From assembly GCF_041260665.1 (NCBI RefSeq), contig NZ_JBGCCT010000019.1, positions 59,492-123,491 on the forward strand: 64,000 nt of DNA. The letters are read 5' to 3'. The translations under genes were made by a program, and so were the position numbers. Shown in pieces: positions 2,581-59,625 of this stretch. Position 1 is the first letter of the stretch. Each line of letters opens with the position of its first letter. Source of the DNA: Catenulispora sp. GP43 (GTDB lineage Bacteria > Actinomycetota > Actinomycetes > Streptomycetales > Catenulisporaceae). The notes beneath the pieces are model-generated. The model saw only the letters and a list, made by a program, of their open reading frames with translations. It did no database searches and was not told where the DNA came from.

Positions 2581-3030
2581 GTGCCGGGCGGAACCGCTGA
2601 TTCCAGCTACCGTCGGCACCCGCCCGATCACCCAGTAAAGTCCCCTTTGACGTGCGATGAACTGGCACTTTACCGTCAACGCATGGATTTCCCGCCGTAC
2701 GATGACGCGCCCCCGCTGGCCTCCCCGTTGGCCGGCGTGGTGGCCGCGTTCATGCCGCGCCTGGCCGAGTTCGCATTCGATCCCGGCCTGCTCGCGGCGA
2801 TCGACCAGCACGCGGCGGCGGTCTGCGACACCCTCAGCATGGACACGTCCGAAGTCCTCGTCCCCAAGCAGCGCACCGTCGCCCGCGAGGACCTGAGCGA
2901 CTACGTGCTCGGTTTCAAGGACGTGCTGACCGAGACCGGCTGGGAAGAGCCGGTCGGCTACGACTTCGCCACCCTGCGCCTGACCGCCATCTGCTGGTTG
3001 GTGCGTGAGCAGGACCTGCTGGCGTTCTGA
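2581..3030 (+). CDS. hypothetical protein
   Basis: 149-aa ORF with coding-like composition and no recognisable motif. Start uncertain (alternative ATG at 2684). Confidence 0.35.
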
Positions 3031-3086
3031 GACCGGCCGGGCGGCCCACGGATAGCCAAGCACGAGCCCATCGGACAGGATCGAGT

Positions 3087-3473
3087 ATGCGATCCCGACG
3101 TGCGGGCATGTGGTGGGGCACCGCGATCGAGGCACCCGACCCCGCCGCCCTGGCCCGTTTCTACTCCGCGCTGCTGGACTGGCCCATCGGCCATGAGGAA
3201 CCCGGCACCGCTATCGTCGCGGCCTCGCCCGAGGGCCCGTACTTCGTCTTCCAGCAGGCCGACGGATTCCGTCCGCCGGTGTGGCCGCCGGTCGAGGGCG
3301 AGCAGCGGCCGATGATGCATCTCGACTTCCAAGTGGGTGACCTGGACGAGGCCGTGGCCGAAGCGGTCGCGTTGGGCGCTACGCTCGCCGCGCATCAGCC
3401 ACAGGAGAACGTGCGGGTGCTCTTCGACCCGGCCGGGCACCCGTTCTGCCTGTGCCGCGACGGCGACGGCTAG
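3087..3473 (+). CDS. VOC/glyoxalase-bleomycin resistance family protein
   Basis: ~125 aa. Residues (H..E..H..E pattern, FVFQQADGF, MHLDFQV) fit the vicinal oxygen chelate fold. Alternative start at 3108. Confidence 0.65.
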   Translation: MRSRRAGMWWGTAIEAPDPAALARFYSALLDWPIGHEEPGTAIVAASPEGPYFVFQQADGFRPPVWPPVEGEQRPMMHLDFQVGDLDEAVAEAVALGATLAAHQPQENVRVLFDPAGHPFCLCRDGDG

Positions 3474-4141
3474 CCCTTCGACCCGGTTCCAGAGCCGGAG
3501 TCGGACACGGACCCAGGCCCGGACCCGGACCCGCTGATCGAACCAATCCCGCCGATCCCGCCCCACCCCTTCTCCAGCACGGCGAACGCCACCTCGACCG
3601 TGCCCTTCGGGTCCTTACTGGCGCGGGCCAATGACGCGGTTTCCAGCGCGAAGTGCGCGAGGACCGCACACGCGGTGTCGTCCGGCGCCGCCCCGACCTC
3701 GACGGCGATCGCCGCCGCGAGCGCCCCCTCGTGGCGCATCCACATCCGGTGCCAGTACTCGCGCAGCACCGGCGTGTCCTCAACCAGGCGGCTATACGCC
3801 GCGAAGGCCTCGTCCTCGATGGGGAACTTCAGCCGCTCCAGGGTCAGCGCACGCAACGCCTCCAGGATGGACGTTCCCGGAGTCCGCTCGCGCACCGCCG
3901 CGACCAACTGGGCCTCGATCTGCGCGTCCTCGTCGAAGACCAGCGCTTCCTTGCCGGTGAAGTGCTTGAACAACGTCGTCGTGGAGACGTCGGCGGCGTC
4001 GGCGATCTCCCGGATCGACACCTGGTCGTAGCCGCGTTCCAAGAACAGGGCCAGCGCGGCGTCGGCGATGGCCTGGCGGGTGGCCGCCTTCTTCCGCTCG
4101 CGCCGTCCGGGTTGCTGGGATTCTGCTTCGCTGCCGGTCAC
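3470..4141 (-). CDS. TetR/AcrR family transcriptional regulator (Gly/Ser-rich C-terminal tail)
   Basis: N-terminal HTH signature KKAATRQAIADAALALFLERGYDQVSIREIADAADVSTTTLFKHF. C-terminus GIGGIGSISGSGSGPGSVSDSGSG is low complexity. Divergent to the MFS gene at 4223. Confidence 0.85.
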   Translation of the reverse strand: MTGSEAESQQPGRRERKKAATRQAIADAALALFLERGYDQVSIREIADAADVSTTTLFKHFTGKEALVFDEDAQIEAQLVAAVRERTPGTSILEALRALTLERLKFPIEDEAFAAYSRLVEDTPVLREYWHRMWMRHEGALAAAIAVEVGAAPDDTACAVLAHFALETASLARASKDPKGTVEVAFAVLEKGWGGIGGIGSISGSGSGPGSVSDSGSGTGSKG

Positions 4142-4222
4142 GGCTCCATCCTAAAGCCACGGTGAACTCGATGGCAAAGTTGACTCGTTGCACTTTTGAA
4201 ATGAGTGTGCTTTTCTGAGGCC

Positions 4223-5698
4223 ATGTCCACCACACCTGCTCCGCCCCACCCCGACGCCGCCCCGCGCCACGTGCGCTGGGCCCTGCTCGGCGTCATGCTC
4301 GCGATGCTGCTCTCCATGCTCGACAACACGGTCGTGGGCACCTCGATGCCGACGATCGTCCGCGAGCTGGGAGGGTTCGACCACCTGTCGTGGGTCGTCG
4401 TCGCCTACACCCTGGCCACCGCCGCCTCGACCCCGGTCTGGGGCAAACTCGGCGACTTGTACGGCCGCAAGCACGTCTACCTGGCCTCGATCGTCCTGTT
4501 CCTGGCCGGCTCCGCGCTGTCCGGCGCCGCACAGTCGATGAGCTGGCTGATCGCGGCGCGCGCCTTCCAGGGCATCGGCGCCGGTGGGATCGGCGCGGGC
4601 GCGTTCGCGCTCATCGCTGCCCTGGTGCCACCACGGGAGCGTGGCCGCTACCAGGGCATGACCGCCTCGGTCATGGCGATCGGGACCATCGGCGGGCCGC
4701 TGCTCGGCGGGTTCGTCACCGGGCACTTCGGCTGGCGGTGGGCGTTCTACCTGAACCTGCCGCTGGGCCTGCTGGCGCTGGTCTGGTGCCAGGTCATGCT
4801 CGACCTGCCGGTGGTACGCCGACGGGCCCGGATCGACTGGGCCGGCATCAGCCTGCTGACCCTGGTGATCACGTCCGTCACGCTCGCCGCCAACTGGGCC
4901 GGGACCACCTACTCGTGGGCGTCCTGGCAGGTGATCGGGCTGTTCGCGCTCGCGGCGGCCGGCGTCGGCGCCTTCATCGCGATTGAGCGCCGCTGTCCGG
5001 AGCCGGTCCTGCCGCCGCGGGTGTTCACCGGCCAGCGCAACTTCCCGCTCGCCATCGCCCTGATCACCGCCTCGGGCGTGGTCATGTTCGGTGCCTCGCT
5101 CTACCTCCCGTTGTTCCAACAGAGCGTGCAGCACGCCACGGCGACCAGTTCCGGGCTGCTCCTGCTGCCGATGATGATCCCGATCGTCATCGTCTCCCAG
5201 CTCGGCGGGCGCTACATGTCGGCCACCGGCCGCTACAAGATCTTCCCGGTCCTCGGCGCGGCACTGATGGCCGTGGGGCTGATCCTGCTGTCGACCATGG
5301 ACCCGTCCACCTCCCGTACGGCTACGAGTCTGTACATGGCGATCGTCGGGGTCGGGCTCGGCGCGCAGATGCAGATGGTCACGACCATCGCGCAGAACAG
5401 CGTCGAGATGCGCGACATGGGTGCCGCCTCGGCGAGCCTGAACCTGTTCCGCACGGTGGGAGGGTCGATCGGGGTGGCGGTGTTCGGCTCGTTGTACAAC
5501 CGGCAGGTGAGCCATGAGGCTTCGGCCGTGCAAGGCGTTGCGAACGGCTCGCACCTGATCTTCCTGATCACGGGCCTGGTCTGCGCGGTCGCGTTCACGG
5601 CCGCGCTGGCAATCAAGGAAGTGCCGCTGCGCAAGGCGACGGGTCCCGGCGTCACACCGGCCGGCTCGCCGGCGCTGGCCGACCGGGGCGCACGCTGA
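4223..5698 (+). CDS. MFS transporter, DHA2 (EmrB/QacA, 14-TMS) family
   Basis: Repeated hydrophobic helices. MFS motif A (GKLGDLYGRKHV) after TM2. ~490 aa, typical of 14-TMS drug:H+ antiporters. Divergently paired with the TetR gene. Confidence 0.85.
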   Translation: MSTTPAPPHPDAAPRHVRWALLGVMLAMLLSMLDNTVVGTSMPTIVRELGGFDHLSWVVVAYTLATAASTPVWGKLGDLYGRKHVYLASIVLFLAGSALSGAAQSMSWLIAARAFQGIGAGGIGAGAFALIAALVPPRERGRYQGMTASVMAIGTIGGPLLGGFVTGHFGWRWAFYLNLPLGLLALVWCQVMLDLPVVRRRARIDWAGISLLTLVITSVTLAANWAGTTYSWASWQVIGLFALAAAGVGAFIAIERRCPEPVLPPRVFTGQRNFPLAIALITASGVVMFGASLYLPLFQQSVQHATATSSGLLLLPMMIPIVIVSQLGGRYMSATGRYKIFPVLGAALMAVGLILLSTMDPSTSRTATSLYMAIVGVGLGAQMQMVTTIAQNSVEMRDMGAASASLNLFRTVGGSIGVAVFGSLYNRQVSHEASAVQGVANGSHLIFLITGLVCAVAFTAALAIKEVPLRKATGPGVTPAGSPALADRGAR

Positions 5699-5839
5699 CC
5701 GCACGGCTACAGCTACAGCTAGAACTAGAACCTGGGACTAGAACCAGAGCTACAACGACGAACTCCAGGGCGCGGGCCCGATCTCGCCGGACCCGCACCC
5801 TGGCGTTCCCTGTGCCGGCTCCTCGCCGACCTCAGCGCG

Positions 5840-6658
5840 TCATGCCGTCGTACCGGGCTCCCGGCCGTATGGCATGTTCGTCTGGGTGGACCCCTGCGTG
5901 TCGGAGGGCTGCCCGGCGCGGGCGTCGGCGCGGCCCTTCTGGTACGCCAGCGCGTTCTGCTGCACCGAGGCCTGCACCCGGGTCGTCTCGGCCTCGGCCT
6001 TGGTCAGCATGCGCTCCCAGCGGGACCGCATCGGTTGGATCAGGCCGCCGCCGATGCCGACGATCGCGATGCCGGCCATGGTGAACAGCACCGCGTTCAG
6101 GATCGGGCCCAGGACGAAGGTGGCGACGCCGATCTGCGACAGCGCCGCGATGGCACCGATGAAGGCGATGAACGACCAGGCCACCCAGCCCAGCAGCCGT
6201 CCGTAGGAGGCCGCGGACAGGACGTTGGTGATGAACTCGCGGGCCACGTTCGCCAGCCACATGGCCACGACGACGATGACCAGCGCGACGATCGCCTTGG
6301 GGATCCAGGCCACCACGCTGTGGATCATGGTGCTGATCGGGTTGGGCCCGAACACGCCCAGCGCCAACTGCAAGAACACCAGCAGCAGGCCGTAGTAGAC
6401 GACCTTGACCAGGATGGTGGTGGTGTCCCACTTGGAGTTCGCCAGGACCCGGCCCGCGCCGGCCTTCTCGGCCATCCGCTCCACGCCGATCCGGCGCAGC
6501 AGCGCGTCCAGCAGCTTGGCGATCACCCGGCAGATCAGCCAGCCGATGAGCATGATCACGGCGAACGCGATCAGCTTCGGGATGATGCGCGTGACCGAGG
6601 TCCAGGCGTCCGTGATGCCCGAGCCCCAGTCGACCGATAGTGCGAGTCTCGGTCCCAT
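5840..6658 (-). CDS. conserved membrane protein with TM-helix repeats (PF05552-like, CmpX-type)
   Basis: Four hydrophobic helices arranged as repeats, then a polar C-terminal tail. ATG preceded by GGAGGAA. The overlapping 455-aa antisense ORF 5832-7199 is rejected. Confidence 0.65.
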   Translation of the reverse strand: MGPRLALSVDWGSGITDAWTSVTRIIPKLIAFAVIMLIGWLICRVIAKLLDALLRRIGVERMAEKAGAGRVLANSKWDTTTILVKVVYYGLLLVFLQLALGVFGPNPISTMIHSVVAWIPKAIVALVIVVVAMWLANVAREFITNVLSAASYGRLLGWVAWSFIAFIGAIAALSQIGVATFVLGPILNAVLFTMAGIAIVGIGGGLIQPMRSRWERMLTKAEAETTRVQASVQQNALAYQKGRADARAGQPSDTQGSTQTNMPYGREPGTTA

Positions 6659-6938
6659 GTAGGTTCCTCCATCGATGCGGTGACGGGGCAGATCCCCACA
6701 ACGTTGGTAACACCCGTATTTTGACGCCGCACTTCAGAAGCCGGGTCACAGTACTCCGGTCAGGTGTCAGGAGTGACGGCCACCCGAGTGTGTGTTCGAA
6801 TTCGACGGCCCTGCGGTAGCACAGTGACGTGATTCGGGGGCAGCACCAGCCACGTTGCCAATATCGCGCCGCGTGCCGGCGGCCCAGACTTGACTGTGGC
6901 TTCTGTCCGGCCGCGCAGTACGTACTCCTGGAGGACCG

Positions 6939-24714: not shown

Positions 24715-25863
24715 ATGCCAGTGCCCCTGCCCGACGCCGACACCGTCCTGCTGCTGCCGCCGGACGCCTCCGAGGTCGCCTGCGTGGCGCGCGGCGTCAT
24801 ATCCGCCGTCGCGCCGGAGGGCGGGCTGACCGGGCTGCAGCAGACGCTGCTGGCCGCCATGTTCCATTCGCTGACCGGGTTCGACATCGACCCGCTGGCG
24901 GTGCAGGCCGAGCTGGCCGGAAAGCCTTACAGCGCGACGGAGTTCGCCGAGGCCCTGCACCGGCGCAACGCGGCGTTCCGGGGCCGTGTCGTGCAGACGA
25001 TGGTCACCGCCGAGCTGGTGCTCTCGCCGCTGCCGGCGCAGGTGGCCGCCCGGGTGGCGGAGTTCGCCGCGGAACTGTCCGTCCACGACGACCTGGAGGA
25101 CGTGCTGATCGGCCACGCCGACTCCGGACGCCGCCTGGCCTCGATCGACTTCGACCGCAACGGGTACCTGCACGACTTCGACGTCCAGCACGCCGCGCAG
25201 CTGCACGTCGGCGACGGCGCGCTGACCGGCCCCTGGACGCCGGTGGAGAACGATCCGGCGCTGGCCGCGCGCTGGGCCTCGCTCGGCGACCTGCCGACCG
25301 GGACCCTCGGCCGGGGCGTGTACGACTTCTACCGCACCCGGGGCTTCTCCTTCCCCGGCTCCCCCGGCTCGGCCCCGCCGCTGCTGGCCCAGCACGACTG
25401 GGTGCACATCCTGGCCGACTACGGCACCCGGGTCGAATCAGAGATCGAGGTCTTCGCCTTCATCGCCCGGGCCAACGACGACCTGCACGCGTTCTCGTTG
25501 CTGGCCATGGTGGTGAGCCTGTTCGAGACCGGCGCGCTGGCCTCGGGCGCCGGGCTGTTCGAGGCCGACCGCGGCCACCTGTCGCAGCCGGGGATGGCGG
25601 TGCGCTTCGGCGACGCGCTGCGGCGCGCGGCCCTGTGCACCGGCAGCAACGACTTCATGGCCACCGACTGGTTCGCGGTCGCCGACAAGCCGGTGGCGGT
25701 GCTGCGCAAGGAGTTGCTGCTGGCGCCCAAGAGCCCCGAAGCGGTCCAGGCCGGCAGCGTCGGGCCGTGGGATGCCGCAGGCATCAGCCCGTTCCAGCTC
25801 AACGCCGGGCGCAAGCTGGCCGAGGCCGAAGGGCGGGAGTACACAGGCCCCACCTTGGACTGA
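24715..25863 (+). CDS. hypothetical protein
   Basis: 382 aa. Good RBS (GGAAGG). Strong third-position GC. No recognisable motif. Confidence 0.55.
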   Translation: MPVPLPDADTVLLLPPDASEVACVARGVISAVAPEGGLTGLQQTLLAAMFHSLTGFDIDPLAVQAELAGKPYSATEFAEALHRRNAAFRGRVVQTMVTAELVLSPLPAQVAARVAEFAAELSVHDDLEDVLIGHADSGRRLASIDFDRNGYLHDFDVQHAAQLHVGDGALTGPWTPVENDPALAARWASLGDLPTGTLGRGVYDFYRTRGFSFPGSPGSAPPLLAQHDWVHILADYGTRVESEIEVFAFIARANDDLHAFSLLAMVVSLFETGALASGAGLFEADRGHLSQPGMAVRFGDALRRAALCTGSNDFMATDWFAVADKPVAVLRKELLLAPKSPEAVQAGSVGPWDAAGISPFQLNAGRKLAEAEGREYTGPTLD

Positions 25864-25894: not shown

Positions 25895-25937
25895 GGAAAA
25901 AGGGGCGAGGCCCAGGGTTTTGCCCGCCCTGGGCCTC
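25895..25937 (-). terminator. rho-independent terminator on minus strand
   Basis: Perfect 11-bp stem GAGGCCCAGGG/CCCTGGGCCTC with 9-nt loop. On the minus strand it is followed by CGCCCCTTTTTCC. Sits downstream of the tRNA-like region and gene 26289-27024. Confidence 0.6.
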
Positions 25938-26008
25938 TCCACACGGTAGGTGTGGTGCCGTCGTGGTGCGCACGCCGATGGCGTTTAAGAAAGCAGGTAA
26001 GCCTGAGG

Positions 26009-26081
26009 CACCGCGCTCTTCCTATTGAGCTATCCCCGCATGAGAGAGCGGGGAACGGGGCTCGAACCCGCAACCTCGGTG
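26009..26081 (-). ncRNA. circularly permuted tRNA-like cloverleaf element (not a canonical tRNA gene)
   Basis: Minus-strand reading 5'-CACCG AGGTT GCGGG-TTCGAGC-CCCGT TCCCCGC T CTCTCAT GCGGGGA TA GCTC-AATAGGAA-GAGC G CGGTG-3'. Perfect T-arm, 7-bp acceptor stem closed by an 8-nt loop, U8, 4-bp D-arm with GG, and a 5-bp stem CACCG/CGGTG at anticodon-stem positions. Exactly 73 nt. The two halves are in swapped order and there is no anticodon loop. Confidence 0.45.
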
Positions 26082-26162
26082 TATGACCCGCTTCCGGTCG
26101 ATCCGGCGATGGACGGCGAGGACTGAGCTTGGAGCGAGAGTCTGAAACTGCTCACTGCTGCC

Positions 26163-26230
26163 TCTGCCTACTTGGGCTACCTCCGCACGCTATGCGGAGG
26201 GAGGGATTCGAACCCCCACTGTCACAGTGT
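26163..26230 (-). ncRNA. second, partial tRNA-like element (T-arm GGGGG-TTCGAAT-CCCTC plus acceptor-type hairpin)
   Basis: Minus strand: CACTG-TGA-CAGTG hairpin, then canonical T-arm, then CCTCCGCA-TAGCG-TGCGGAGG hairpin followed by TA GCC-CAAGTA-GGC (D-arm-like). Same permuted layout as 26009-26081 but the outer stem is not convincing. Confidence 0.3.
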
Positions 26231-26288
26231 TCGTGAAATTCAGGCGTCACATTAAGCTTGGTCGCTCGCCGCCGATCCTAGCGAAACC

Positions 26289-27024
26289 TCACGCGAAGAG
26301 GTAACCGAATACCGCCTCGCCCACGCGCTGGTCGGTGACCTCGAAGGTGTTCGCCTCCTCGCGGGCGAACTTCACCGCCTGGCTCAGCTTCTCCACCCGC
26401 TCCACGAGTTCGTTGACCCGCTGCGCCGGAAGTGCGCCGGAGAACTTGGTCTGCGTCCAGTAGCCGACGGCGATGTCCTCGTAGTACACCTCGACCTGCG
26501 CCGGGTGCTTCTCCGTGGCCTCGGCCTTGACGTGGTTGCGCGGCACCTTCTTGGTCCGCAGCGTGCGCACCGGCTCGGTCCGGTACCAGTCTGTGGACGG
26601 GTCGGCTGACCAGGACTCGGCGGCGTCGAGGATCGGCAGCTTCTTGACGAACGTGTTCAGGTCGGCGAGCTGCTTCTCCAGGAAGAGCAGGTAGGACACC
26701 GGCACGTCGCGCAGCAGGGTGGTGCCCTCCACGACGACGTCGGCGCGCGCCACGCAGTTCGCCCAGTCCTTGGTGGCGGTGACGTCGAACAGGCGGGTCA
26801 GGCCGGTGGCGATCTGGCGCAGCACGTCCTCGGCCTTGACCTGGACGCGGGTGGACTCCGGCGGGAGCTGCTCGCCGTCCTCGTCCTTGGGCTGGTAGGT
26901 GCGGCTCAGTCCGGTGAGCAGCGGCTGCTTCTGGACGTCGTGGTGGGCCTGGGTGAGTTCGGCGTAGGACTTGCTCTTGACGCCTTTCTCGATGGCGATG
27001 ATCTGGCTGAGTTTGGTGGCCATG
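26289..27024 (-). CDS. hypothetical K/E-rich protein
   Basis: ~245 aa from MATKLSQIIAIEKGVKSK... GGGGGGAA RBS 4 nt before ATG. Charged composition. No known motif. Same strand as, and immediately upstream of, the tRNA-like elements and the terminator. Confidence 0.6.
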
Positions 27025-58635: not shown

Positions 58636-59625
58636 TTACCAATGCGCTGATAGCGAGCGCAGCACCGCGCCGCGCACGGAAACCGGCTCCCCCTCGGCGC
58701 CCGGCAGGCCGCCGACGAGTCCGGGCAGGGACGCGCCGAACGGGTCCACGTCGAAGACGTATTCGGATTTCTCGTTGTCCAGGATGAGATCCACTCCCAG
58801 GGAGCGGATCCCGGCGAAGAGCGTGGCGGTGCGCTCGGCCAGCGCGATCAGCCGCTCCCAGCGCTCGGTCGCGAACCGGGTGAGGAAGGCGTCGATCTCG
58901 CGGCGCCTGCCGCCGTACCACTCGCGCAGCGCGTCCCCTTCGCGCTTCACGCCGACGGCGTGGGTGACTTTGCCGTCCAGCACCGCGAACCGGAAGTCGT
59001 AGAAGTTGTTGAGCAGGTGCACGCGGTGAAGCGAGGCGACCGCGTGGATCCCGTCGGGGGCCAGCAGTTCGGCGACTTCGGCCAACTCCCGTCGGTCGCC
59101 GGCGCCCTGGCCGGGAGCGCGCCAGACCTCGAAGCCGGTGCGGGTGCGGTGCCGGAACAGCTGCGTGCGCCAACCGTCGATCATCCACTCGTCGGAGCCG
59201 GCGAACCGGGGTCGCAGGGTGTTGCCGCCGACGGCGGACACGTCGGAGAGTTCCAGCAGCGGAAGGCCGCTGTCGCGCAGGAACGCGTCACACTTCGTAC
59301 GGTCCAGTGCCAGCAGCGTCTGCTCGACAGAGGCCGCGAGGCTCGCGCCGGCCTTGGTGGCCGCCGCGTCCAGGCGTTCCAGGGCTGCTTGAAGGTGCGC
59401 GTACCGCGCACGCTGGCCGCCGACCGGATCGGCCGCGGTGTCAGGGTACAGACGTTCGGCGAAGACCACCTCGCCTGAGCCGAACTCGGCCTCGGAGTCC
59501 ACCACGGCGGACCACGGCACGAAACGCGGCTGTGCGAGGCCGGCCTGCTGTGCCGCACGCGACCATTCGGCGCGCGCCGCCTCGTCCTCCTGGCCGGTCA
59601 CGACCGCCCAGCTCGGCGTGCTCAT
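58636..59625 (-). CDS. STM4014-like uncharacterised protein
   Basis: 329 aa. Overlaps the upstream LRR gene by 4 bp. I recall the adjacent STM4014/STM4015 family pairing; function unknown. Confidence 0.5.
   Translation of the reverse strand: MSTPSWAVVTGQEDEAARAEWSRAAQQAGLAQPRFVPWSAVVDSEAEFGSGEVVFAERLYPDTAADPVGGQRARYAHLQAALERLDAAATKAGASLAASVEQTLLALDRTKCDAFLRDSGLPLLELSDVSAVGGNTLRPRFAGSDEWMIDGWRTQLFRHRTRTGFEVWRAPGQGAGDRRELAEVAELLAPDGIHAVASLHRVHLLNNFYDFRFAVLDGKVTHAVGVKREGDALREWYGGRRREIDAFLTRFATERWERLIALAERTATLFAGIRSLGVDLILDNEKSEYVFDVDPFGASLPGLVGGLPGAEGEPVSVRGAVLRSLSAHW

Follow-up and report, generated by a model that had tools for sequence, protein, structure and literature searches.

Gene and RNA modules at the locus

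The window analysed here (i.e., the whole stretch of 64,000 nucleotides (nt) at positions 59,492 to 123,491 of contig NZ_JBGCCT010000019.1 from Catenulispora sp. GP43) consists of Catenulispora-like actinomycete DNA with 70% GC, and carries on its minus strand a gene for a DUF7873 protein followed by two elements, referred to as modules A and B, in which the parts of a tRNA stand in swapped order. An initial annotation had described these elements as circularly permuted tRNA-like cloverleaves. The comparative data detailed below show them to be real, strand-specific and structurally conserved, and point to tRNA-mimic RNAs with the architecture of YrlA. Gene and modules are laid out as follows (bp, base pairs; stem strands are given 5′ to 3′).

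26289..27023, minus strand: gene for a DUF7873 protein of 244 amino acids, from ATG at 27023 (MATKLS...) to the stop codon TGA at 26291-26289 (Pfam PF25283, E=1.3e-119)
About 26243-26131, minus strand: module A, predicted whole tRNA-mimic RNA unit with basal stem, tRNA-like domain and conserved 3′ tail (full-length Rfam YrlA match, 19.4 bits, E=0.21)
26243-26239 and 26146-26142, minus strand: putative outer stem of module A, CUGAA with UUCAG, read from the sequence
26229-26225 and 26157-26153, minus strand: inner (anticodon-stem-like) stem of module A, CACUG with CAGUG, from sequence and alignment A4
26217-26201, minus strand: T-arm of module A, GGGGG-UUCGAAU-CCCUC (100% paired in 39 sequences, 2/5 pairs compensatory)
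26200-26180, minus strand: acceptor-like hairpin of module A, CCUCCGC-AUAGCGU-GCGGAGG, 7 bp with a 7-nt loop (100% paired, 6/7 compensatory)
26177-26160, minus strand: D-arm of module A, GCCCAAGUAGGCAGAGGC, class II-like (GCCCAA..GG.AGAGGC invariant in 39 sequences)
26157-26131, minus strand: 3′ side of module A, i.e., inner-stem strand CAGUG, UUCAG and the conserved tail CAGACUCUCGCUCC
26105-25972, minus strand: module B, predicted whole tRNA-mimic RNA unit (105.2 bits, E=2e-28 with R1, a covariance model (CM) built for module B; full-length Rfam YrlA match, 34.5 bits, E=9e-6)
26105-26096, minus strand: 5′ box of module B, CGGAUCGACC, containing the class-wide AUC(G/A)AC motif (nearly invariant in alignment A1)
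26095-26087 and 25997-25989, minus strand: outer stem of module B, 9 bp, GGAAGCGGG with CCUGCUUUC (RNAalifold on a MAFFT alignment)
26081-26077 and 26013-26009, minus strand: inner (anticodon-stem-like) stem of module B, CACCG with CGGUG (6/6 pairs compensatory, 82% paired)
26071-26055, minus strand: T-arm of module B, GCGGG-UUCGAGC-CCCGU (99.8% paired, 5/5 pairs compensatory; loop GUUC.A at least 90% conserved)
26054-26033, minus strand: acceptor-like hairpin of module B, UCCCCGC-UCUCUCAU-GCGGGGA, 7 bp with an 8-nt loop (99.8% paired, 7/7 compensatory)
26032-26031, minus strand: equivalents of U8-A9 in module B, preceding the D-arm
26030-26015, minus strand: D-arm of module B, GCUC-AAUAGGAA-GAGC (as DNA, GCTC-AATAGGAA-GAGC; 97.4% paired, 3/4 pairs compensatory)
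25997-25972, minus strand: 3′ strand of the outer stem of module B, CCUGCUUUC, with the 3′ tail UUAAACGCCAUCGGCGU (conserved across copies)

The tRNA parts of both modules lie on the minus strand where the initial annotation had located them, and its length of 73 nt for 26081-26009 is correct. Its element limits (26009-26081 and 26163-26230) were too short, the true units being 26105-25972 for module B and about 26243-26131 for module A. Two of its details also had to be revised: the loop of the acceptor hairpin in module B is 8 nt long including the "discriminator" T (rather than a T plus an 8-nt loop), and module A is not the "less complete" copy, since it possesses both a D-arm (26177-26160) and an inner stem (CACUG/CAGUG).

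Between the outer and inner stems of module B lies an asymmetric 5-nt/11-nt internal loop, which 5′ of the inner stem reads UCAUA and is without a Ro60-type CGAA. The CACCG strand is followed by a variable region of 5 nt (AGGTT), and a single G separates the D-arm from the CGGUG strand. The CUGA and UCAG boxes of module A are conserved in relatives, the register of its outer stem is not fixed by the alignment, and its ..CUCAGACUCUCGCUCC tail hardly varies between genera.

The G-U wobbles in both T-stems exist on the minus strand only, and the fold energies agree with the initial call for RNAs read from that strand, with z-scores of -3.1 on the minus vs. -2.0 on the plus strand for module B and of -1.7 vs. 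-0.9 for module A.

Covariation and conservation of the modules

In a plain MAFFT alignment of 76 copies of module B, RNAalifold recovered the outer stem, T-arm, acceptor stem and D-arm, with compensatory changes at 20/25 pairs; over 87 sequences, all nine pairs of the outer stem are compensatory and 93.6% paired. The inner stem was out of register between clades in the MAFFT alignment, which was mended by CM re-alignment. In the resulting alignment A3 of 87 distinct copies from bacteria and phages, 94.4% of the cells pair (vs. 36-47% when slid by 1-3 columns), the covariation score is 0.88 (vs. 0.09-0.15 when slid, and not reached in any of 500 shuffles) and compensatory changes occur at 30/31 pairs, the pairing figures being inflated because A3 was fitted to its model. 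For module A, the unfitted MAFFT alignment A4 (39 copies) gave 93.7% paired cells (vs. 44-58% when slid) and compensatory changes at 13/20 pairs. Its inner stem has double changes at 5/5 pairs (70-80% of cells paired in the unfitted alignment), its outer stem stays out of register, and covariation in its D-arm is impossible because this arm never varies.

In the 88-sequence consensus of module B, the equivalents of the tRNA hallmarks U8, G10, A14, G18G19, A21, G53, U54U55C56, A58 and C61 are each at least 90% conserved, and the conserved U8, G18G19 and T-loop nucleotides lead us to infer a tRNA-like tertiary fold. Outside the tRNA-like core, the boxes found class-wide in module B are the 5′ AUC(G/A)AC, a YUGA preceding the outer stem and, at the 3′ end, a UUAAAC tail; UCGA of the 5′ box was present in 22/24 bacterial and 37/64 viral copies, and UUAAA of the tail in 17/24 and 58/64, respectively.

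The invariant D-arm of module A (GCCCAA..GGCAGAGGC, 26177-26160) resembles that of class II tRNAs (tRNA-Leu-like), and the D-arm of module B (26030-26015) is class I-like, which suggests that both modules may derive from different tRNA ancestors. Separately, some phage copies of module B (e.g., L134, L139 and L151) insert 30-75 nt into the acceptor loop (columns 67-149 of A3), vs. a median of 8 nt.

Regarding tRNA genes proper, ARAGORN detected no tRNA or tmRNA (transfer-messenger RNA) in the window and the Rfam tRNA family had no match at the locus, in line with the initial annotation, which could fold no canonical tRNA here. Circularly permuted tRNA genes are known from the red alga Cyanidioschyzon merolae and from some other algae and archaea, and those of the C. 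merolae type regain their anticodon loop by a bulge-helix-bulge splice and circularisation. As in the present modules, their 3′ half precedes the 5′ half and a short linker joins the acceptor ends; the modules moreover have a 7-bp acceptor stem, a discriminator and encoded CCA in many copies, and all tRNA core nucleotides. Nevertheless, it is very improbable that they are permuted or split tRNA genes that mature into decoding tRNAs (by circularisation or by opening of the loop through RNase P/Z), as the initial annotation's wording had implied. Unlike in the C. merolae type, the ends of the modules build a long conserved stem: the 5-6 bp inner stem runs into a conserved asymmetric internal loop, beyond which lies an outer stem of 9 bp that covaries, so that no anticodon loop can form, and no bulge-helix-bulge is present. 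Moreover, a plain hairpin can replace the tRNA-like domain of module A, and bacteria and phages are, to our knowledge, without the archaeal/eukaryal splicing endonuclease that known permuted tRNAs require.

Likeness to YrlA and other RNAs

No Rfam family reached its gathering score in the window. In a permissive scan, YrlA (RF02553) was the sole meaningful family and matched both modules over its full length, with 34.5 and 19.4 bits vs. a gathering score of 69; members of this class elsewhere scored 31-38 bits, which is also below the gathering score. Since the genuine, Ro-linked YrlA of phage Bxz1 likewise obtained only 32.5 bits with the Rfam YrlA model, these sub-threshold scores are no argument against kinship. 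R1 matched the core of module A (30.1 bits, E=1e-6), and its match on the Bxz1 YrlA was confined to the tRNA-like core.

As described by Chen et al. (2014, PMC4201824), YrlA is a tRNA-mimic subclass of the bacterial Y RNAs, in which T-arm, acceptor-like stem-loop and D-arm follow each other in this order on a stem formed by the 5′ and 3′ ends. Because this order is identical, the "permuted cloverleaf" represents a known RNA architecture rather than a permuted tRNA gene, and of the alternatives that the initial annotation had listed, that of a tRNA-derived structured non-coding RNA (ncRNA) was the right one. The topology shared with YrlA (RF02553; PMC4201824; structure preprint 10.1101/312249) comprises the basal stem, variable region, T-arm, closed acceptor-like stem and D-arm, together with the conserved tRNA core nucleotides. 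YrlA also often has a simpler Y-like RNA (YrlB) next to it, comparable to modules A and B and to a hairpin variant of module A (see below), and occurs in phages near tRNA genes, as the present cassette does. In contrast to YrlA, the present class is linked to DUF7873 instead of Ro60/Rsr, has its RNAs downstream of the protein gene, is without a V arm, carries the conserved boxes AUCGAC, YUGA and UUAAAC, and misses the Ro60 motif in the window and in all viral copies. The YrlA of Mycobacterium smegmatis, which is cleaved by RNase P, CCA-tailed and thereby in two pieces, is likewise actinobacterial and shares a common precursor with a tandem second Y-like RNA; it differs in being bound by Rsr and encoded upstream of rsr, and in that many copies of the present class already encode an NCCA.

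The complexes of Ro60 (TROVE) with Y RNAs, including their phage forms (Bxz1 gp220; Thermus phage phiLo, PMC12135203), resemble the present locus in pairing a protein gene with one or two adjacent ncRNAs on the same strand. They too are found in phages with large tRNA arrays, and in related Gordonia phages they take an alternative position to the DUF7873 cassette. They differ in the protein: DUF7873 is without the TROVE HEAT-repeat ring and the vWA (von Willebrand factor A) domain, and neither homology (hhalign probability of 0.09%) nor fold similarity to Ro60 was detected.

Two-piece (permuted) tmRNAs (Rfam beta_tmRNA and tmRNA_permuted) are found in alpha- and beta-proteobacteria and in cyanobacteria. 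In their genes, too, the 5′ acceptor strand comes after the T-arm and the 3′ acceptor strand, and phage modules gave partial, sub-threshold beta_tmRNA matches over the acceptor/T part. The modules differ from such tmRNAs by being much shorter and having a D-arm, a tag reading frame and pseudoknots are missing, and ARAGORN calls no tmRNA.

A further explanation is that the locus is a non-functional remnant, i.e., a rearrangement scar, a decayed tandem of tRNA genes (the T-arm of one with the D-arm of the next), an attachment site or a cruciform. Chen et al. (2014, PMC4201824) caution that dimeric tRNAs can mimic the YrlA pattern, and tRNA genes are common integration sites. This explanation is scarcely credible and was rejected, as the comparative data already refute it: conservation and covariation extend over more than 160 loci, the arrangement is kept from Catenulispora to Klebsiella phages, and wobbles and fold energies are strand-specific. 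An origin from two different tRNAs is impossible, because the two acceptor strands of a module pair with each other in 99.8-100% of cells and show compensatory changes.

A conserved cassette in actinomycetes

The DUF7873 protein of the window matches the Pfam model with 398.8 bits (cut-off 27) over 241/244 model positions, and its homologs are 243-244 amino acids long. Conserved residues of the protein are, in window numbering, Y43, E56, N89, K117, W138, K159, H173, Q176, D183, W189, R209, R221 and N225. The bacterial sample consisted of the best 80 of at least 577 DUF7873 matches, one genome per species, and comprised Catenulispora, Streptomyces, Kitasatospora, Actinomadura, Micromonospora and others. 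All 80 loci have, 3′ of the DUF7873 gene, T-arm motifs whose stems covary, and in the parsed loci the T-arms of A and B lie 142-149 nt apart, with the full architecture in both modules. By R1, module B was found directly downstream on the same strand at 80/80 loci (104-156 bits), so that unit and part order are conserved in relatives, and where an ordinary tRNA was sought in those relatives, permuted modules were found in place of intact tRNAs.

The core of module A was found at 59/80 loci. At the other 21, the flanks of module A are intact and its tRNA-like domain has been swapped for a plain hairpin, with retention of the conserved tail; by analogy, Y RNAs are organised in this manner, with an exchangeable apical module on a conserved base. 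Clustering of neighbours within 4 kb on either side of the DUF7873 gene revealed no second conserved protein, and tRNAs near these bacterial loci were at background level (13/80, one each).

Some Streptomyces loci (L010, L012, L015 and others) have two further conserved GC-rich hairpins, CGCCCCCGCG..CGCGGGGGTG and GCGCGGGCCGG..CCGGTTCGCGC, within the first ~110 nt after the DUF7873 stop codon and before module A. They are absent from the Catenulispora clade of the window and are candidates for a terminator, attenuator or processing site. In Streptomyces lucensis (L008), positions 1-234 of the locus hold the 3′ portion of an RNase P RNA (Rfam, 121 bits), ~3.8 kb upstream of DUF7873; this was seen in one of the eight loci scanned and is probably coincidental.

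The cassette in phages

DUF7873 was also found in 333 IMG/VR contigs and in 75 sequenced phage records, all of which label the DUF7873 protein "hypothetical protein", with hosts that include Vibrio, Gordonia, Rhizobium, Klebsiella/Serratia, Arthrobacter, Pseudanabaena, Ralstonia, Rhodococcus and Microcoleus. At ~72/81 viral or metagenomic loci, R1 detected a full-length module B (>40 bits) directly downstream, usually preceded by an A-like core. Each of the seven phage isolates checked has an unannotated gap of 300-700 nt after DUF7873, and a clear permuted tRNA-like signal was present in the following six.

Gordonia phage GodonK: module B match of 80.5 bits (R1)
Arthrobacter phage Racecar: module B match of 72.7 bits (R1)
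Pseudanabaena phage PA-SR01: module B match of 40.7 bits (R1)
Ralstonia phage RSL1: module B match of 33.2 bits (R1)
Rhizobium phage RHph_TM30: 30.5 bits (R1) and 35.9 bits (Rfam YrlA)
Klebsiella phage KpLz-2_45: 26.9 bits (R1) and 37.6 bits (Rfam YrlA)

As judged from such matches, the pairing of DUF7873 with these RNAs persists down to ~30% protein identity. Nearby tRNAs were found at 49/81 viral loci (at least 10 tRNAs in 12 of them), and 305 of these 316 tRNAs lie on the same strand; in GodonK, the cassette sits between tRNA-Asp and tRNA-Leu. The model matches and gene neighbourhoods together show that the cassette of DUF7873 and these RNAs is widespread both among actinomycetes and among phages from several phyla, and that in the latter it often lies within tRNA arrays.

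In phage genomes, the several hundred nt after the DUF7873 gene are unannotated or given tiny, probably spurious ORFs (open reading frames), and two such small ORFs overlap the RNA modules on the opposite strand, i.e., GodonK gp205 (L162, 5006-5134, minus strand) and Vibrio K479 0060 (L163, 4905-5060, minus strand); both calls are probably spurious. Elsewhere in the GodonK locus (1387-1915), Rfam detected a full tmRNA (90 bits) where the record labels only a 62-nt "tRNA-His" at 1466-1527, the latter likely being a mis-annotation of the tmRNA. In PA-SR01 (L170), a sub-threshold permuted tmRNA match (31.9 bits vs. 47) lies at 5263-5442, ~2 kb downstream of the cassette.

Relation to Ro60

Ro60 was sought in the 64-kb window and in the DUF7873 loci. 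None of the large ORFs of the window is a TROVE/Ro60 protein, and tblastn with two phage Ro60 proteins found none there either. Within 4 kb of the DUF7873 gene, tblastn located Ro60 at 0/80 bacterial and 1/81 viral loci. The latter, IMG/VR contig IMGVR_UViG_3300026078_000021 (L146), carries DUF7873 at 2995-3738 and module B at 3943-4076, and a TROVE/Ro60 gene that is cut off by the end of the locus lies 2.4 kb downstream; two YrlA-like matches (5103-5234 and 5471-5599) and a tRNA-Pro also lie downstream on the same strand (overall span 2995-6735). Since L146 carries both, the DUF7873 and Ro60 systems are not strictly exclusive.

Homologs of Ro60 occur in ~355-362 phage records, mainly of Mycobacterium, Streptomyces and Microbacterium phages. 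For the Gordonia phages, in which both sets are fully listed, there are eight carriers of DUF7873 and eight of Ro60, and no overlap.

Gordonia phages with DUF7873: Phendrix, GodonK, Keelan, Ronaldo, Volt, Guey18, Fryberger, Ziko
Gordonia phages with Ro60: Boopy, Forza, BlueNGold, Mareelih, Sixama, GMA2, Cashline, BearBQ

The tRNA arrays of GodonK and Mareelih are syntenic; that of Mareelih is headed by Ro60, and that of GodonK has only small ORFs at this spot. R1 found no tRNA-like core near the Ro60 gene of Mareelih.

Y RNAs are defined by the sequence GNCGAAN0-1G (CGAA) near their 5′ end, the putative contact of Ro60 (Chen et al. 2014, PMC4201824). This sequence is absent from module B of the window (which has GGGUCAUAC instead) and from 64/64 viral copies of module B, and CGAA was seen in 7/24 sampled bacterial copies. 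The elements are thus without the defining features of Ro60-type Y RNAs, the difference lying in the putative protein-binding half.

These data bear on the explanation that the modules are ordinary Ro60-binding Y RNAs (YrlA/YrlB) whose Ro60 is encoded elsewhere, with the adjacency of DUF7873 being incidental or reflecting a shared regulon. YrlA is the sole Rfam family that matches, at scores equal to that of the genuine Bxz1 YrlA; the tandem of A and B recalls YrlA with YrlB; and both protein genes occur together on the viral contig L146. Many Streptomyces copies of module B moreover have GGACGAACG, which fits GNCGAAN0-1G, in a large internal loop flanked by the stem of the 5′ and 3′ ends, and Ro60 binding in trans would be possible. 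Nevertheless, we consider this explanation unlikely. In the account of Chen et al. (2014, PMC4201824), who searched only TROVE-containing genomes and reported only matches at most 4 kb from Ro60, nearly all best YrlA matches lie within that distance of Ro60 on the same strand, in contrast to the bacterial loci and the window analysed here. CGAA is missing from the window copy and all viral copies, the basal half has different conserved boxes, and the Gordonia phages that carry DUF7873 do so in the absence of any Ro60.

Proposed ribonucleoprotein and its processing

The best reading of these observations, to which we assign a probability of roughly 60%, is a Ro60-independent tRNA-mimic ribonucleoprotein (RNP), in which RNAs A and B would act together with DUF7873 from a conserved three-gene cassette. 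A literature search returned no mention of DUF7873 or of a Ro60-independent YrlA-like RNA.

In the proposed course of events, A and B would be transcribed with or just after DUF7873 from the minus strand, ending at a hairpin at 25937-25897, and would fold as laid out above, into a secondary structure that covariation demonstrates and a presumed tertiary fold. RNase P may then cut on the 5′ side of the 5′ acceptor strand, whose partner strand would be trimmed and CCA-ended, yielding a nicked, two-piece tRNA-like RNA. Such processing is suggested by the 7-bp stem (99.8-100% paired), by the frequent NCCA and by the precedent of the M. smegmatis YrlA, which RNase P cleaves and which acquires CCA in vivo, as ascribed to its 7-bp acceptor stem by Chen et al. 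(2014, PMC4201824). Among viral modules, 43/75 and 16/41 have an NCCA at the start of the acceptor loop, as do 21/81 bacterial first modules, vs. ~1.6% expected by chance; the acceptor loop of module A often opens with ACCA in relatives, and that of module B starts with UCCA in 33/88 copies. The loops in the window (AUAGCGU in A and UCUCUCAU in B) encode no CCA, so that CCA would need to be added enzymatically here.

The basal stem and the boxes (5′ AUCGAC, YUGA and 3′ UUAAAC) would subsequently bind DUF7873, in the role of Ro60, as suggested by the strict gene linkage and the absent Ro60 motif. The RNP might finally act on tRNA metabolism; speculatively, it could be a decoy for nucleases that target tRNAs, inhibit them competitively, or offer a platform for surveying or repairing tRNAs, which would account for the phage cassettes inside tRNA arrays; YrlA has been proposed as a competitor of anticodon nucleases (Hughes et al., PMC7790460). 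Any role in a tRNA-centred conflict of phage and host, or in tRNA surveillance, is speculative.

A wider form of this reading, which we hold to be somewhat short of an even bet, is that DUF7873 is the protein subunit of an unrecognised, Ro60-independent RNP with RNase P-processed, CCA-ended tRNA mimics. This RNP would be a mobile module that sits in the tRNA arrays of phages from at least five phyla or classes of bacteria and that has become a fixed part of the chromosome in Streptomyces and its actinomycete relatives. It would act in a conflict over tRNAs, in which it might, e.g., decoy or inhibit nucleases that target tRNAs or toxins that modify acceptor ends, or provide a platform on which tRNAs are repaired or turned over, thus making it a functional analogue of Ro60 with its Y RNAs.

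Apart from the contig carrying both genes, the Streptomyces copies with the Ro60 motif and possible binding in trans, the search for Ro60 within loci and the inflated figures of A3, several points weigh against a DUF7873 RNP. Direct binding of DUF7873 to the RNAs is inferred through guilt by association, and the gene linkage could mean mere co-transcription or processing of the mRNA 3′ end. The AlphaFold2 (AF2) model of DUF7873 (pLDDT, i.e., predicted local distance difference test, of 95.5) consists of four long helices and a beta-sheet; its comparison with solved structures revealed none that is similar and no recognisable RNA-binding fold. The protein is, moreover, mildly acidic (isoelectric point of 5.9, family median of 6.2). 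Finally, ~9/81 viral loci are without a strong module B match, and the seventh phage isolate gave the following.

Vibrio phage K479: weak signal of 13 bits, plus a partial permuted-tmRNA match

The linkage has also to be weighed under the explanation that the modules are cis-acting parts of the DUF7873 transcript, i.e., tRNA-like punctuation that recruits RNase P/RNase Z for mRNA 3′-end formation or for separation from the phage tRNAs, and that has no function in trans. The modules are always directly 3′ of the gene on the same strand, with ~45 nt from the stop codon to module A and no terminator in between in the window, their 7-bp acceptor stem and NCCA imply recognition by RNase P and the CCA machinery, and phage tRNA arrays are processed as polycistronic precursors. 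We nevertheless regard a purely cis-acting role as improbable: a single tRNA-like hairpin would suffice for it, whereas two different modules are kept with their own non-tRNA boxes and covarying basal stems. In addition, the flanks are nearly invariant where module A loses its tRNA-like domain, and real tRNAs already flank the phage gene and would be available as punctuation.

Y RNAs have until now been defined by their partner Ro60. Here, the tRNA-mimic domain sits on another basal module and is strictly linked to another protein, which is uncharacterised and of novel structure. If DUF7873 binds the RNAs, tRNA-mimic RNPs would be broader than Ro60 with its Y RNAs, the tRNA-like domain would be their shared functional core, and its role would be open to study in tractable systems, e.g., Streptomyces and the SEA-PHAGES Gordonia and Arthrobacter phages. 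The presence of the cassette in phage tRNA arrays also bears on the purpose of phage-borne tRNAs and on the ways in which phages counter defences that target tRNAs.

Downstream hairpin and neighbouring ORF

Downstream of module B, the presumed end of the transcript has the following feature.

25937-25897, minus strand: terminator-like GC-rich hairpin GAGGCCCAGGG-CGGGCAAAA-CCCUGGGCCUC, then GCCCCUUUUU (read from the sequence; putative function)

This hairpin is likely the 3′ end of a DUF7873-A-B transcript. It was missed by a simple terminator scan because its T-run begins 5 nt past the stem. A 382-amino-acid ORF at 24715-25863 on the plus strand shows a strong bias typical of coding sequence (GC content at third codon positions of 0.96), is convergent with the cassette and has no Pfam or NCBIfam match. 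A weak Rfam match to the Bradyrhizobiaceae small RNA BjrC68 (25898-25986, minus strand; 20.8 bits, E=0.006) stems from the terminator-like hairpin and U-run after module B.

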